Positions 15,504 through 32,597 of a stretch of 39,473 bases of DNA are shown piece by piece. Position numbers and translations under genes: made by a program. Origin of the DNA: Nanobdellota archaeon (lineage in GTDB: Archaea > Nanobdellota > Nanobdellia > Woesearchaeales > GW2011-AR4); NCBI GenBank assembly GCA_038046385.1, contig JBBSWH010000003.1, positions 1-39,473 of the forward strand. Reading direction: 5' to 3'. The notes under the pieces are model-generated. The model searched no databases and was not told the DNA's origin. It worked only from the letters and a program-made list of their open reading frames with translations. The first letter of the stretch is position 1. The number at the start of each line of letters is the position of its first letter.

Positions 15504-16049
15504 ATGAACCTGTTAATAGTCAAGGAAGAGATACTTGGCAGTGCGCATGAGCAGGCAAAGCAGATATTAAGCGATGCCAGAAAAGAAGCAAACAGAATTT
15601 CCAAGGAAGCAGAAAAAAAGCTGGAAGAATTCAGAGAAAAAAGCGATGCAGCTGCGAAAAAGGCAATTGAAACCATAAAGAGGCAGGAGATTGCGGCCGG
15701 AGAGCTTGAGAGCAAGAAAATGCTGCTCGAGACAAAGAAGCAGGCAATAGACGCTGCTTTTGCAGAAGCAAGAAAAAGCATTGAGAGCCTTGATGACAAA
15801 AAAAGAGGGGCAATGCTCAAAAAGCTGCTAGAAAAAACCCAAAAGGAAATAGACATTGCAGCCGTTTACTGCAGCAAGAAGGATGCAAAATTTTTCAGCG
15901 GAATAAATACAATTTCAATGGAAATGACTGGCGGATTCATTGCAGAGAACAAAGAAAAAACGATTAGGGTGGACTGCAGCTTTGACTCGCTGCTTCAGCT
16001 TGTCAGAGACAACGAAATGCAGAACCTGAACAATATGCTTTTTGCATAA
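15504..16049 (+). CDS. atpE: A-type ATP synthase subunit E
   Basis: Coiled coil plus GGFIAEN...IRVDCSF; start set at ATG 15504, just after the atpK stop. Confidence 0.92.
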   Translation: MNLLIVKEEILGSAHEQAKQILSDARKEANRISKEAEKKLEEFREKSDAAAKKAIETIKRQEIAAGELESKKMLLETKKQAIDAAFAEARKSIESLDDKKRGAMLKKLLEKTQKEIDIAAVYCSKKDAKFFSGINTISMEMTGGFIAENKEKTIRVDCSFDSLLQLVRDNEMQNLNNMLFA

Positions 16050-16053
16050 CACT

Positions 16054-17124
16054 ATGCTAAAAACCCAGGAGAAACGGAAACTGAATTTGGGAAGGTATCC
16101 CTACACTTACGTAAGAACGAGTGTAATGAAGTCCCTTCTTTTTAAGAAAGAGGACTATCAAAAAATGCTGAAGATGGGATTTTCGGAGATTGCAAAGCAA
16201 ATGCAGGATTCAAATTACAAAAAAGAAATCAACGAGCTTGCGGCAAATTATTCAGGATCTGACCTTTTGGAGCTTGCATTGAACAGGAGCCTTGCAAATT
16301 CATACAAGAAGCTGCTGAGAATATCCCCGAACTCGCTCGATGTTCTCATAAAAGAATATGTAAAGAGAAAAGATGTAGAGGACATCAAGACAATCATAAG
16401 GGGAAAGCTGACAGGCGCAACAAACACCGAAATAACCAATTCAATAACCGGGGCAGGCATTCTTGAATATTCTTTCCTTATATCTTTGCTGAAAAAAGAT
16501 TCGATAGAAGAGATATTGAAGGCAAACAGAATGGTTGAGCTTTCAGCTTTTAAGGAAGGATTAAAGGAGCTGAAGGAAAAGAACAGCATAGTTGCGATTG
16601 AAAATGTAATGGACAAATATTATTACAGCTCTCTTGCCGAGTTTTCAAAAACACTGCCAAAAGAAGGCCATCTTTTCAGAAATTTCATCCAGAAAGAGGT
16701 TGATGCAATGAACATACTTACCCTTTTCAGGCTGAAGAAAGCAAAATTCAGCAAAGAAAAAATAAAAGCGTTCATGATACCCTCATCAGGAAAAATAAAG
16801 ATGTCAAAGCTTGCAGACCTTGCAAACGTAGAGGATTTCGGAGAGCTTGCAAAGGCTTTTGCAAAAACAGAATACGGCAATGCTGTTTCTGAAGGCATTG
16901 AGGAATACAAAAAGGCAGGCTCGCTGATAAAGCTGGAAACCGGGCTGTACAAGCACGTTTTAAGGCAGTCAATGCTCATGCTGCACCAGCATCCTCTTTC
17001 AGTGGATGTAATTTTGGGATATATGTTTGCAAAAGAAATTGAAACAAGAAATTTAAAAATAATCATAAAAGGAAAGCAGCTGAAATTAAAAGAAGATTTC
17101 ATAGAAAATCAACTGGTGTTTTAA
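16054..17124 (+). CDS. atpC: A-type ATP synthase subunit C
   Basis: YPYTYVR...MKSLL, DIKTIIRGK and KEIETRNLKIIIKGK; start set at ATG 16054. Confidence 0.93.
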   Translation: MLKTQEKRKLNLGRYPYTYVRTSVMKSLLFKKEDYQKMLKMGFSEIAKQMQDSNYKKEINELAANYSGSDLLELALNRSLANSYKKLLRISPNSLDVLIKEYVKRKDVEDIKTIIRGKLTGATNTEITNSITGAGILEYSFLISLLKKDSIEEILKANRMVELSAFKEGLKELKEKNSIVAIENVMDKYYYSSLAEFSKTLPKEGHLFRNFIQKEVDAMNILTLFRLKKAKFSKEKIKAFMIPSSGKIKMSKLADLANVEDFGELAKAFAKTEYGNAVSEGIEEYKKAGSLIKLETGLYKHVLRQSMLMLHQHPLSVDVILGYMFAKEIETRNLKIIIKGKQLKLKEDFIENQLVF

Positions 17125-17125
17125 A

Positions 17126-17257
17126 ATGAGAACGACAAAAAACTTTTCCGTGGCATTGGATGTCGGAAATCAAAGATTTCCGATCACCTCGCGGAACTTT
17201 GTTCCGCAACGAATGCCACTTCATGTCGTCGTAAAGGGGCGAAACCGTTTATGGTGA
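17126..17257 (+). repeat. Branched palindromic cassette between atpC and atpF, spanned by a 43-aa mini-ORF
   Basis: Nested stems ACGACA/TGTCGT, GTGGCATT/AATGCCAC, TCGGAAATC-aaa-GATTTCCGA and GCGGAAC-ttt-GTTCCGC. ATG lies 1 nt after the atpC stop and the TGA overlaps the start of atpF. Confidence 0.7.
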
Positions 17258-17550
17258 ACATAGCAGCAGCAGGGTCAAGCGAATTTGTCGTCGGGTTCAG
17301 GCTAGCCGGAGTGAGGTATATTTTTGAGATGAATGACGATTATTTCAAAAAACTGAAGGAGTTAAGAAGCGACAAGGAGCTGGGAGTAGTTGTCGTCGAG
17401 GAAAAAGTAATGGAATCCTTGGAGCAGCATCAGAGGATTGAGATAGAAAGCTCTGTGGAGCCGGTATTCATAACACTGTCAACAAAAGTCGAACAGGATA
17501 GCCTGAAGAGACTGATAAAAAAATCAATAGGCGTTGACCTATGGAAATAG
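17251..17550 (+). CDS. atpF: A-type ATP synthase subunit F
   Basis: GFRLAGV and IKKSIGVDLW. Confidence 0.95.
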   Translation: MVNIAAAGSSEFVVGFRLAGVRYIFEMNDDYFKKLKELRSDKELGVVVVEEKVMESLEQHQRIEIESSVEPVFITLSTKVEQDSLKRLIKKSIGVDLWK

Positions 17551-20694: not shown

Positions 20695-20724
20695 TTGTTT
20701 GCATTGTAAAATATAAAATTTAAT

Positions 20725-20839
20725 TTCCGTGCCTTCGGCACAAAAGATAGGCGCCCCCGCATTGGGCGCAAATATATTGTAAAATGTATTGCGAGATGGT
20801 CGGATGCCATCGAGCTGTAATATTTGTTGCGAAGCAACA
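20725..20839. repeat. Cluster of four GC-rich hairpins in the atpB-atpD spacer
   Basis: GTGCC-ttc-GGCAC, GCGCCC..GGGCGC, GATGG..CCATC and TGTTGC-gaa-GCAACA. Confidence 0.65.
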
Positions 20840-20944
20840 GAAAAATAAATAACAAAAACAATAACGAAAAAACTCAATAACGAATAACATTAAACAAAAT
20901 CAATAAAATATTACAAATAAAAATTATCAAAACAATTACAAAAA

Positions 20945-22259: not shown

Positions 22260-23507
22260 ATGCAAAAATTCCTAACATTAAACGATTTGGATGTGAAAGG
22301 AAAGCGAGTTCTTGTGAGAGTTGACTTTAACGTTCCGCTTGACAAAAAGACAGGCGAAATAACTGATGATAAAAGAATAAAGGAATCATTGCCGACGATA
22401 AAATTTCTGATTGAGAGAAATGCTAAGGTCATTCTTTGCTCGCATCTTGGAAGGCCGGACGGAAAAGCTGCAGAAAATTTAAGGATGGACAAAGTTGCTT
22501 TGCGTTTGCAGCAGATGATTAACAGGAAAGTTTTGAAATTAAATGACTGCGTCGGGGATTATGTCAAGGAACACATCATGAAAATGAGAGATGGAGATGT
22601 TATTTTGCTTGAAAACTTAAGGTTTCATGCAGAAGAAGAGGAAAATGATGCAGAATTCTCAAAACAATTAGCTGATTTGGCTGAATTGTATGTTAATGAT
22701 GCGTTTGGAACATGCCACAGGGCGCATGCTTCAACTTACGGAGCTGCGCAATACCTGCAGTCAGCAGCAGGATTCCTTGTCGAGAAGGAATTAAGGATAA
22801 TGGGCAAGGCAATGGAAAACCCTGAAAGGCCTTTTGTCGGCATTTTGGGCGGAGTAAAGATATCTGACAAGATAAAAGTGATTGAAAGCTTGCTGTCAAA
22901 AGTTGATAAACTGCTGCTTGGAGGTGCGATGATATTCACATTCTACAAGGCGCAGGGAAAAAATATTGGAGCGTCGAAGTTTGACGAAACAGGAGTAGGA
23001 TTGGCAAAGAGATTATTGAAGTCCTACGGAAGCGAAGCTTCCGGGGAACTCGCAAATCAAAAATTTGCGAGTAACCCAAAAATAATACTGCCGACAGATA
23101 TTGTTGTTGCAGACAAGTTTGATGCAAACGCTGAATCAAGTATTGTTGATGTTGATTCAATGCCGGATGAATGGCTTGGGCTGGATATCGGGCCGGAGAC
23201 AATAAAAAATTACAAACAAATACTTTCAGGCGCAAAAACAATAGTCTGGAACGGGCCAATGGGCGTGTTTGAATTTGAAAAGTTTGCAGCGGGCACAAAG
23301 GAAATTGCGCAGTTCATGACAACAATCAAAGCAGTTACAATCATAGGCGGCGGCGATTCAGCTGCTGCTGTCGAGAAGTTTGGATACGCTTCAAAATTGA
23401 CGCACGTCAGCACAGGCGGAGGCGCTTCTCTTGAATTCTTTGAAGGAAAAAAACTTCCTGGAATTGAAGCGCTGGAAGAAAGTTTTAGTAAAAATCAAGT
23501 AGCGTAA
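22260..23507 (+). CDS. pgk: Phosphoglycerate kinase, bacterial-type, with an insertion of about 17 aa
   Basis: RVDFNVP, SHLGRP, LLENLRF, NDAFGTCHRAHAS, WNGPMGVFE and HVSTGGGASL. Confidence 0.98.
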   Translation: MQKFLTLNDLDVKGKRVLVRVDFNVPLDKKTGEITDDKRIKESLPTIKFLIERNAKVILCSHLGRPDGKAAENLRMDKVALRLQQMINRKVLKLNDCVGDYVKEHIMKMRDGDVILLENLRFHAEEEENDAEFSKQLADLAELYVNDAFGTCHRAHASTYGAAQYLQSAAGFLVEKELRIMGKAMENPERPFVGILGGVKISDKIKVIESLLSKVDKLLLGGAMIFTFYKAQGKNIGASKFDETGVGLAKRLLKSYGSEASGELANQKFASNPKIILPTDIVVADKFDANAESSIVDVDSMPDEWLGLDIGPETIKNYKQILSGAKTIVWNGPMGVFEFEKFAAGTKEIAQFMTTIKAVTIIGGGDSAAAVEKFGYASKLTHVSTGGGASLEFFEGKKLPGIEALEESFSKNQVA

Positions 23508-29178: not shown

Positions 29179-29349
29179 TTTGAACTAACCTCTTTTGCAT
29201 TATTCTTATTCAAAACCTCGGAAATCCTTGATTTCCGATGGTGACCGAAAATCCCATCGGGATTTATCGGCATGAATGCTACGAACGCCTGACCTGCGAG
29301 TGAGCTCGTGCGAACTCGCTCACTTTTCACTGAGTATGTGTTCATTTTG
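29172..29349 (-). repeat. Multi-hairpin cassette flanked by an 11-bp direct repeat and spanned by a 56-aa mini-ORF (29175-29345)
   Basis: CAAAATGAACA (minus strand) at both ends; hairpins TCGGAAATC-ctt-GATTTCCGA, AAATCCC-atc-GGGATTT and AGTGAGC..GCTCACT; ATGA overlaps at both ends. Confidence 0.75.
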
Positions 29350-30569: not shown

Positions 30570-31814
30570 TTACTTTCTTTTTTTCTTCCAGAACCTGTAG
30601 CCGAAGAAGGCAACTACAGCAATAACTAAGATGAAAAACCAATAAGAGTTTCCTTTGCCGGCAACAAGCCCTAATTTTTTTGCCTCAGATGAAGTGTATA
30701 ATGGCAATGAAAGGCTTATGTCTTTTTTGTAATTCTTGTTGTTTGCATCCTTGTATTCTATTGTCAAAGGAATTGCAACGCTTTTATCAGATGTCTTTTC
30801 CATGTAAAGCTTGAAATCAGCTGTTTCATAGTCATCAGAGTCTATGTTGCCTATGTAGATTTCAGAAGGAGACAATGTTTTGTATTTGTCGCTGCTTAAT
30901 AATTTTAAGTTGACAAACTTCATATCCGGCAATCCGCGGTTGACTATTTTTACTGTGATGTCTCCGGCAGTCCCAGCTGTGTATATTGTTGTGCTGTCAA
31001 CACTGACTGAAACCTCCGGCTCACCGCCAACAACCATGGTAACGACGTTGGATTTGGAATAGTTTTTGTTTAACAAGTCAGAATACCTTAGCATCAAAGG
31101 AACTTTGTAAGATTTTGATGATGCATCAGGATCAACCAACAAATCAAAATCAACAGAAGTTGTTGCCTGTCCATCAATAAATGAGATGACTTTTTCATTT
31201 ACAGAGCCAAGAGGCGAAAAAGGAGTTGCAAGATTGTTGCTTGTTCCCAATTCAAGACTAACTCTTACATCTTTCAATGCAGATGTCGCATAATTTTTTA
31301 ATGTTATCGAAAGCTTTGCCTTTGCTCCAGGAGCTACAACAGCAGGGTCGGATGAGAATTTGTCCACTGCAAGTATTGCGTCATGTGACTGCACATTTAC
31401 GCTAAGGTCGTTCACTACAGAAAGCAATTGACTATCTCCATATTTGAACCCTGCCTTCAATTCGTAATTGCCGTCAGAAGCGCTTTGGTCTACAAGAAGC
31501 TTGTACTTCAAAACAACACTTTGGTCTGCATTGTTAGTATTTCCGAGAACCCCTATTTTTCTTTCAGCAACCTCTCCAGGCACAAGTGAGAATGGATACT
31601 CTGGCACGATGCTAAAGACTACATTCTGGGCAATATCCCCTTCATTGTCTATCTTAAAATTGACTTCAAACTGCTTGCCCGGCTCAACCGGATCAGGATC
31701 CTGATTGTTTATGCTTACCTGTATGCTTGGAGATTTTACATTATACTGCGCGTACGCAACACCTGAAATCAATACCATCAAAACCATAACTGCAATAAAA
31801 ATTTTGTTTTTCAT
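30570..31814 (-). CDS. COG1361-like (S-layer/CARDB Ig-fold) membrane-anchored protein of the ABC operon
   Basis: Signal peptide, QDPDPVEPG...F.I.N.G, repeated beta-sandwich motifs (YIGNIDSDD), C-terminal TM and basic tail; GAGGTGA SD. Confidence 0.85.
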   Translation of the reverse strand: MKNKIFIAVMVLMVLISGVAYAQYNVKSPSIQVSINNQDPDPVEPGKQFEVNFKIDNEGDIAQNVVFSIVPEYPFSLVPGEVAERKIGVLGNTNNADQSVVLKYKLLVDQSASDGNYELKAGFKYGDSQLLSVVNDLSVNVQSHDAILAVDKFSSDPAVVAPGAKAKLSITLKNYATSALKDVRVSLELGTSNNLATPFSPLGSVNEKVISFIDGQATTSVDFDLLVDPDASSKSYKVPLMLRYSDLLNKNYSKSNVVTMVVGGEPEVSVSVDSTTIYTAGTAGDITVKIVNRGLPDMKFVNLKLLSSDKYKTLSPSEIYIGNIDSDDYETADFKLYMEKTSDKSVAIPLTIEYKDANNKNYKKDISLSLPLYTSSEAKKLGLVAGKGNSYWFFILVIAVVAFFGYRFWKKKRK

Positions 31815-31896
31815 TTTTAATTCACCTCAACGGTTTCGTCCGTTGACACCGACATCAAGTGCAATCTGCGATTGCACGGAACCGTTTTTCATTTTT
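31806..31896 (-). repeat. Hairpin cassette flanked by a 13-bp direct repeat, spanned by a 21-aa mini-ORF (31827-31892); homologous to 17126-17257
   Basis: AAAAATGAAAAAC twice; hairpins GTGCAATC-gca-GATTGCAC and TCAACGG-acgaaa-CCGTTGA; peptide MKNGSVQSQIALDVGVNGRNR. Confidence 0.72.
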
Positions 31897-31901
31897 TTTA
31901 G

Positions 31902-32597
31902 TTATCTGTTTCTGTGCGATTTTATTACTTTTCCGTCTTTCAAAAATTCTGTTCTTTCTGCAACTCTTGAAAGATTTACATCATGAGTAACCATCACGAT
32001 TGTTTTTTTCTCGTCTCTGTGCAGCTTTTCAAGGAAATCAAGCACATTTGCCCCTGTTTTGCTGTCAAGGTTTCCTGTCGGCTCGTCAGCCAGGATGACT
32101 TCAGGATTATTTGCAAGGCTTCTTGCAATAGCAACCCTTTGCTGCTGCCCTCCTGAAAGCTCAGATGGGCGATGGTGCATTCTTTCCTTTAATTCCACAA
32201 GATTAAGAAGCTCTGAAGCTTTTTTCTTTCTTAAATCTTCCGGAATTCCCTGGAAAATCATCGGCAGCATAACATTTTCTGCCGCTGTTAATGTGGGTAC
32301 AAGATTGAACTGCTGGAAAATAAACCCTATCTTCTTTCCCCTTATCTGCGCCAAATCAGATTCAGACAGCATGGAAATATCATGGTCTTCAAGCATTACC
32401 CTTCCTTTTGTAGGCACATCCAAGCAGCCAATCATGTTGACTGCAGTTGATTTTCCTGAGCCTGAAGGGCCCATTATGGCAACAAATTCGCCTTCTTTTA
32501 TGTCTAAATTAAGGCCCTGGAGCGCGTTGACCTCAACATCGCCCATTTTGTAAGTTTTCCAGACGTTTTCCAGCTTTATTATTGACTTTTTCATCAT
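31902..32597 (-). CDS. LolD/MacB-type ABC ATPase
   Basis: GPSGSGKS, GFIFQQFNL, LSGGQQQRVAIAR, ADEPTGNLD and MVTHD. Confidence 0.97.
   Translation of the reverse strand: MMKKSIIKLENVWKTYKMGDVEVNALQGLNLDIKEGEFVAIMGPSGSGKSTAVNMIGCLDVPTKGRVMLEDHDISMLSESDLAQIRGKKIGFIFQQFNLVPTLTAAENVMLPMIFQGIPEDLRKKKASELLNLVELKERMHHRPSELSGGQQQRVAIARSLANNPEVILADEPTGNLDSKTGANVLDFLEKLHRDEKKTIVMVTHDVNLSRVAERTEFLKDGKVIKSHRNR

Follow-up and report, generated by a model that had tools for sequence, protein, structure and literature searches.

A copy of a structured repeat, here called R1, was found inserted between atpC and atpF in the A-type ATPase operon of a Nanobdellota archaeon. A mini-ORF of 43 codons opens where atpF ancestrally began, spans the insert and ends on a stop codon that overlaps the present atpF start, and this arrangement recurs at other tight junctions of the genome. 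From this anatomy we infer that ribosomes translate the mini-ORF and that atpF relies on this for its expression. A relay, in which ribosomes pass through the mini-ORF and then begin atpF by termination-reinitiation, appears rather probable on these grounds.

The DNA analyzed, referred to as the window, is the whole stretch of 39,473 nucleotides at positions 1-39,473 of the forward strand of contig JBBSWH010000003.1 (assembly GCA_038046385.1). According to the ORF list, the ATPase operon in it has the order atpI-K-E-C-F-A-B-D. The subunit names, assigned from the operon order and gene lengths known from other A-ATPase operons, are presumably correct, and for atpC and atpF the identity was backed by tblastn against relatives. 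The gene for subunit C, atpC (16042-17124, plus strand, TAA stop at 17122-17124), showed 53-68% identity in 28 relatives. The atpF gene (17251-17550, plus strand) encodes 99 amino acids, and its N-terminus, MV(K/N), could be aligned from residue 1 in 33 genomes of the genus.

The preliminary description had placed most junctions of this operon below 35 nt. As calculated from the ORF ends, this was borne out for I-K (21 nt), for K-E, E-C and A-B, which overlap, and for F-A (22-31 nt), but not for atpB-atpD, where a spacer of 250 nt forms an exception. The strongly folded atpC-atpF spacer had been described as an insert of 126 nt with nested stems, and here coordinates, sequence and fold were all confirmed.

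The R1 repeat and its nested hairpin doublet

R1 was characterized from alignment A1, which contains fifteen copies from relatives with an element length of ∼82 nt; R1 overall has a length of ∼55-82 nt. The element consists of hairpin A (GTGCCATC-GAA-GATGGTAC), hairpin B (GAAACTTTTT-N3-AAAAAGTTTC), a linker TCGKYGT (e.g., TCGTCGT) and hairpin C (AAGGG or AACGG, an RCGAAA loop and CCGTT). The three helices were supported by covariation. In total, 97.8% of the cells were paired and four pairs were changed on both sides. The covariation score was reached by none of 500 shuffles, and sliding the partner gave at most 53% paired cells. Conserved G.U pairs favour one strand. A covariance model identified 130 copies at E ≤ 0.001 in 39 of the 43 genomes of the genus, with 1-16 copies per genome, and a single weak match in 120 genomes from other genera of the same order. 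R1 is almost confined to this genus. Comparison with Rfam 15 gave no family near threshold, the best E values being 2.9-8.9 for the window region and 0.28 for five canonical copies, and no tRNA was detected in the window region by ARAGORN.

Ten copies at E ≤ 0.001 are present in this genome, in addition to the copy at atpF, which matched the model at 17162-17253 with 29.3 bits and an E value of 0.005. This score is weak because a hairpin doublet is nested within the copy. The inserted repeat (17134-17250, plus strand) has a variable 5' tail and is of the short form, in which hairpin A is followed by the linker and hairpin C without hairpin B, as is also the case for three other copies in the genome. 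The outer stem of hairpin A (17150-17219), formed by GTGGCATT (17150-17157) with AATGCCAC (17212-17219), was identified in both the fold and alignment A1, and encloses a nested doublet of 54 nt (17158-17211) that belongs to a second repeat family and has hairpins at 17163-17183 (TCGGAAATC/GATTTCCGA) and 17191-17207. Linker TCGTCGTA and hairpin C (AAGGGGCGAAACCGTT), both conserved in alignment A1, occupy 17226-17249. The 16 nt of hairpin C are identical to copies in eight other genomes, 30 nt of the insert are shared with the rpl2 copy at 93% identity, and the right arm of the insert recurs between rpl23 and rpl2 of this genome.

In the predicted fold of the spacer, the outer stem and the two hairpins of the doublet form a three-way junction, which is followed by a 3' hairpin in which the ATG of atpF is base paired. 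The minimum free energy was −55.8 kcal/mol (z = −3.37), and none of 200 shuffles folded as stably. The branched palindrome of the preliminary description is the doublet nested in loop A of R1. A doublet was found at the same place, inside hairpin A, in the rps15 copy of another species.

Hairpins of the second family (TCNNAAATC-N3-5-GATTTNNGA) were found in 27 copies in the genome, usually with ATG before and GCAT after the hairpin, and their core AAATC-N3-GATTT occurs 40 times compared with 1-8 times for control patterns. Two variable stem positions are always complementary, and the hairpins usually form head-to-head pairs via GCATGC, which resemble REP doublets. Further hairpins of this family lie at 29218-29238 and 23050-23070 of the window. 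A genome-wide count of perfect hairpins with stems of at least 8 was only weakly above the Markov control (305 vs. 211), and the specific families were used instead.

R1 appears to behave as a mobile repeat, judged by its occurrence in both orientations, at tRNA ends and with flanking duplications. Direct repeats of at least 12 nt flank seven of the 130 copies (21, 19, 17, 15, 13, 12, and 12 nt), compared with one of 642 mismatched flank pairs, and exact flanking repeats of sister copies range from 9 to 21 nt. Several copies are located at the 3' ends of tRNAs and duplicate them, while others duplicate a start codon. Antisense copies whose 3' end meets a gene's stop codon account for 62 of the 130 and sense copies directly before a start for 18, and at orthologous junctions R1 is variably present or absent. 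The copies at tRNA 3' ends include G000:C1:41648-41703, G007:C225, G028:C13:44380, and G065:C11, where 12-21 nt of the tRNA end are repeated on the far side.

At the window copy, a target duplication is inferred from a degenerate left copy (17126-17133, plus strand), which holds the old atpF start codon, and a right copy, ATGGTGAAC (17251-17259), which contains the present one. Only ATG and GAAC match between the two.

A MITE or REP element with a cognate transposase was rejected as a model for R1, as terminal inverted repeats are absent from alignment A1 and the duplications are long and variable. A REP/RAYT system was also rejected, as the flanks of the lone Y1_Tnp gene are without the studied hairpins. 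This IS200/RAYT-like gene (G000:C10:41904-42236, 159 aa) is the sole one in the genome, is present as a single copy and overlaps the start of its neighbour. The best TnpB score in the genome was 19.2 bits, below the cut-off, and no nuclease-like ORF stood out in the ORF lists at six R1 copies. By eye, the neighbours of these six copies start like proteins which we take to be KaiC/RecA-type ATPases, UDP-glucose dehydrogenase and others.

Ancestral junction and anatomy of the mini-ORF

The atpC-atpF junction was measured in 28 relatives of the same genus, corresponding to 30 fetched loci minus one without atpC and the window itself. This comparison, which had been proposed as a search for empty sites, revealed a tight, empty junction in 15 of the 28, in which ATGGT follows the atpC stop at −1 to 6 nt, usually in the arrangement ..GGTGTTTTAA-A-ATGGTAAAA. 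In the remaining relatives the spacers were 15-25 nt (four of 28) or at least 47 nt (nine of 28). ATG 17126 of the window occupies the position of the atpF start in the tight-junction relatives and stands behind the same GGTG (17115-17118, plus strand), which is kept in them as ..GGTGTTTTAA.ATGG and is the likely ancestral Shine-Dalgarno (SD) motif of atpF, now putatively serving the mini-ORF. The stop in the +1 frame right after the atpF start (ATGGTAA or ATGGTGA) is ancestral too. Therefore, the mini-ORF opens at the old atpF start and closes on conserved atpF codons, its TGA being supplied by codons 2-3. New compared with the ancestral junction are the 125 nt in between and the repetition of the ATG at the right end. 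Neither end of the mini-ORF is a special adaptation, the start being a duplicated host codon and the TGA a part of atpF. These two origins, and the nature of the insert as a mobile repeat, were not part of the preliminary description.

The mini-ORF (17126-17257, plus strand, 43 codons) runs from ATG 17126, which one base separates from the atpC TAA, to a TGA at 17255-17257 that overlaps the atpF start over 7 nt (ATGGTGA). This is the frame that the preliminary description had read, and the peptide of 43 residues matches. Its assignment of GGTG inside the end of atpC as SD motif was also borne out. The motif lies 7 nt ahead of ATG 17126 with its 5' base at −11, and in this genome the 5' base of SD-like 4-mers peaks at −14 to −8 (173 of 756 long ORFs vs. 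38 of 756 in a control window).

Stop-start distances of −8 to +10 nt are taken as predictive of termination-reinitiation in a study of Haloferax (PMC10666635), a criterion that applies to one transcript; a single transcript was assumed here. With a distance of +1 nt from atpC and an overlap of 7 nt with atpF, both ends of the mini-ORF fall in this range. According to the same study, reinitiation in Haloferax was decreased by 40-60% at 13-14 nt and lost at ∼20-22 nt (PMC10666635). Therefore, a spacer of 126 nt, if untranslated, would break the coupling used elsewhere in the operon.

An R1 copy has inserted directly after the ancestral atpF start codon. In the proposed mechanism, this event would have duplicated the start region, giving atpF a complete new start at the right end and leaving the earlier start, with its GGTG, in place at the left. 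Ribosomes that end atpC, or that are bound at the old SD, would initiate at ATG 17126 and read 43 codons through the insert, melting its stems including the one that pairs the atpF start codon. They would halt at the TGA, 1 nt past the atpF ATG, and termination-reinitiation would then start atpF.

Of the nine relatives with long spacers at this junction, seven show AT-rich sequence there (GC 0-25%) that no ORF bridges, another carries a gene of 323 codons, and the last has a 47-nt hairpin. Because the seven AT-rich spacers are unbridged, coupling at atpC-atpF is dispensable in the genus. The inserted gene (L027, G026) encodes a Cys-rich repeat protein and begins 15 nt past the atpC stop, and 1 nt separates its end from the atpF ATG. 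The 47-nt spacer (L038, G009) consists of a single perfect palindrome (ATGTCAATTGC-AGA-GCAATTGACAT) between runs of A and T, and its ATGTC..GACAT ends are in common with the hairpin family. Across the genus, the atpC-atpF junction is an insertion hot spot.

Bridging frames at other junctions and competing explanations

The bridging arrangement was identified at four more tight junctions of this genome, namely at rpl2, rpl37e, C3:31825, and C1:91629. Between rpl23 and rpl2, where the spacing is at most 17 nt in 27 of 29 relatives, the R1 copy is spanned by an ORF of 24 codons with a TAATG overlap at each end. The second R1 copy of the window (31825-31879, minus strand) is flanked by an exact direct repeat of 13 nt (AAAAATGAAAAAC), by which the start of the following gene is duplicated. 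A uORF of 21 codons (31827-31892, minus strand) stops 12 nt short of the real ATG, and a strong GAGGTGA lies in this gap. The gene beside this copy (31812-31905 region, minus strand) encodes 414 aa with a signal-peptide-like N-terminus, and its start ATGAAAAAC is duplicated. At rpl37e, the opposite strand of a related element is read, with a duplication of 20 nt, a frame of 31 codons and an ATGA overlap. The copy at C1:91629 is a long-form R1 with 35 codons, which begin in an ATGA overlap with the gene before them and end in TGATG. The four sense copies are read in one common frame, with ..GRNR as the residues ahead of the stop.

Two relatives lack the element at the C1:91629 junction and have an ATGA overlap there, and all five element-bearing genomes have a uORF (35, 36, 48, 33, and 56 codons) that ends at −3 to +1 of the start. 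These frames stay open despite indels of +1, +2, and +1 nt, a nested insert of 38 nt and a nested doublet. Three of the five copies clearly represent one old insertion and differ by indels of +1, +2, +1, and −3 nt and the nested 38-nt insert. This junction, located upstream of a conserved gene for 357 aa (G000:C1:91707; L199-L223), is a second insertion hot spot, where members of the genus carry inserts of at least four kinds, namely long-form R1, short-form R1, the upstream module in antisense, and AT-rich spacers.

Taken alone, the open frame of the mini-ORF is compatible with chance. In 20,000 shuffles of each type, the 122 nt between the two ATGs kept this frame open in 10.2% of cases when mononucleotides were shuffled and in 40.4% when dinucleotides were preserved. 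The insert is almost devoid of TA dinucleotides, and the spacer has stops in only one of its three sense frames. R1 copies are stop-poor in general, with a mean of 1.02 of three frames open per copy in sense and 1.4 of three in antisense. Among 21 doublet windows, in which 32 of 63 frames are open, the doublet at atpF is the sole one with all three frames stop-free. It is the recurrence at other junctions that speaks for the relay. With five of six independent tight-junction insertions bridged and a chance of 0.4 each, a binomial value of ∼0.04 is obtained, which is a rough estimate and not a computed test.

The mini-ORF may thus be incidental to a stop-poor element, opened by luck from the old start, with atpF initiated independently from the 3' end of the element. 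This is possible but somewhat doubtful. Besides the open dinucleotide shuffles and the two open frames of the spacer, it is favoured by other R1 sites. The copy between rpl2 and rps19 forms a spacer of 87 nt, compared with 2-5 nt in relatives, and is without a bridging ORF. In relatives, old and conserved R1 copies upstream of rps10 and rps15 abut the start with this same 3' end (..AAGGGGCGAAACCGTTTATG) and have no ATG-started spanning ORF (for rps10 in seven relatives), and the upstream gene is ∼90-110 nt away. From these two sites the 3' end of the element can apparently support initiation on its own. GGGG is also enriched upstream of starts in this genome (35 vs. 4), and the GGGG of hairpin C, the only SD-like motif for atpF, is a possible weak SD; some other feature of the 3' end may also serve in its place.

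Against independent initiation stands the position of this motif. Its 5' base is at −15, at the edge of the SD profile, where 15 occurrences were counted compared with 45-54 at −13 to −9, and the predicted fold places the atpF ATG in a stem. Luck is further argued against by the five tight junctions of one genome that are all bridged, and by the five of five element-bearing orthologous junctions that are bridged despite indels. The relay proposed in the preliminary description is partly backed by the anatomy, the ancestral start and SD, the four other junctions and the orthologs of C1:91629, whereas the case for its need is weakened by a frame compatible with chance, by the rps19 and rps10 copies and by the AT-rich spacers in seven of 28 relatives.

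An improbable alternative is that the insert acts mainly as an RNA element, such as a processing or stability site, a pause or a terminator, that sets the levels of atpIKEC versus atpFABD, and that the ORF is irrelevant. The strong predicted fold, the covarying helices with G.U pairs on one strand only, and the 62 of 130 copies that adjoin the stop codon of an opposite-strand gene, a terminator-like place, are consistent with such a role. However, R1 occurs in either orientation and at tRNA ends, where duplications flank it, and so behaves as a mobile repeat; moreover, the short form lacks hairpin B and its T5 runs, and Rfam gave no match.

That the product of 43 residues is a functional small protein is very unlikely. 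The frame is open and has a good SD, but this is all that favours it, while the sister peptides vary from 21 to 56 residues and their common stretch (..VVVKGRNR or ..GVNGRNR) is only nucleotide-dictated. In addition, hairpin A is read in different frames by the long and short forms, and at rpl37e the frame uses the other strand of a related element.

It is hardly credible that the insert is an assembly artefact or a bulge-helix-bulge RNA intron removed before translation, as contigs of two other studies carry its junctions unchanged and no insert-free joined form was seen. A contig of an independent study (X4) spans 16974-17290 with no differences, and a contig of another study (X12) spans 17019-17170 and includes the left junction of the insert. 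In two runs, the copy at rpl2 is represented by loose ends. Insert-free joints were absent from the contigs of four runs, in which rare variants are dropped and X7, X9, and X12 give partial coverage. The runs with this DNA are labelled groundwater metagenomes. The insert is genuine. By inspection, the exon flanks (..TTTTAAAATG and GTGAACATAG..) were unable to pair and offer no helix-bulge-helix frame.

Relation to known elements and an accompanying module

The closest published counterpart of R1 is the mycobacterial interspersed repetitive unit (MIRU). In a review from 2025, MIRUs are described as mobile, inserting at start codons and carrying an internal ORF that is coupled to the gene at −4 nt (PMC12548453). 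R1 and MIRU are alike as short, dispersed and apparently mobile repeats at start codons inside operons, and in each a small spanning ORF closes on a stop that overlaps the displaced gene's start. The effect proposed for both is a low-harm insertion via translational coupling. By this analogy the window copy likely works like a MIRU, but it is not filed as a MIRU member. The host of R1 is archaeal and no sequence relation to MIRU is expected. In R1 the start of the ORF is not borne by the element but is a duplicated host codon in a target duplication of 9-21 nt. R1 also differs in its conserved multi-hairpin structure, its presence in both orientations and its location at tRNA 3' ends and beside stop codons, and the overlap is 7 nt here and 1 or 4 nt in sister copies (TAATG, TGATG, ATGA). 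MIRUs form tandem variable-number arrays, whereas no tandem arrays were seen among R1 copies. The account of MIRUs is reportedly to be credited to Supply et al. in 1997.

Termination-reinitiation pairs of archaea and bacteria, as presented in two studies (PMC6728339; PMC10666635), resemble the mini-ORF in the stop-start distance of −8 to +10 nt, here seen at both of its ends, and in that the operon codes for subunits of one complex, a class enriched for such overlaps. In contrast to these pairs, the upstream partner here is not a gene but a junk frame that results from an insertion. Short uORFs that deliver ribosomes, including bicistronic vector designs (described in PMC12548453), are similar in that a short frame ends on the gene start and lifts an inhibitory structure. 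The R1 case, however, is natural and arose by transposition, and is neither engineered nor a dedicated leader.

With REP, BIME and REPIN elements and hairpin MITEs, R1 shares the character of small structured intergenic repeats that have covarying stems and are nested, clustered and co-transcribed with genes. Among the MITEs, which include Correia, ERIC and Rickettsia palindromic elements (RPEs), the RPEs are tolerated within reading frames. Unlike these families, R1 has no terminal inverted repeats, its duplications are variable (12-21 nt) and no cognate transposase flanks it. A general review covers these elements (PMC3184786). No description of archaeal or DPANN start-codon repeats was found in the literature searched.

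R1 and sister DPANN families could form a distinct class of mobile elements for compact genomes, a stop-free, RNA-like cassette whose relay frame is selected, although this is rather unlikely. Such a class would consist of cassettes of covarying hairpins that are stop-free in most frames and often end in a stop or SD, with start codons, stop codons and tRNA ends restored through the duplication. The duplications of 12-21 nt would suggest a casposase-type staggered integrase or an RNA-templated route rather than a classical transposase. Selection would act on the relay frame as the way in which the element stays harmless in coupled operons.

If the relay works, a gene-dense archaeal genome can absorb mobile DNA in essential operons, such as those for ATP synthase and ribosomal proteins, and the coupling of stoichiometric subunits survives the insertion. 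If true, this would be an archaeal counterpart of the mechanism proposed for MIRU. Spacers of the R1 type are neither genes nor classical leaders. Since start codons are rebuilt by these elements, the automatic calling of starts, uORFs and operons in DPANN genomes will be misled.

In 16 of the 130 copies, an additional module is located ahead of long-form R1, ∼20-130 nt upstream of hairpin A (e.g., L051, L112, and L125). It has a GTCGC-TTC-GCGAC hairpin, followed by AAATTTAGTGCTCGG, a variable hairpin and CCTCGCC-ATTTATTTT. The latter looks like BRE/TATA, so that some R1 copies might be transcribed as their own small RNAs. The atpB-atpD spacer of the window (20695-20944) contains several GC-rich hairpins (e.g., CCGTGCCTTCGGCAC and GTTGCGAAGCAAC) and then an A-rich tail, and resembles the upstream module (AATCCG-hairpin-..GTGCTCGG..CCTCGCC-ATTTATTTT) of many long-form R1 copies in relatives. 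Judged by this resemblance, the module is possibly present there in the other orientation.
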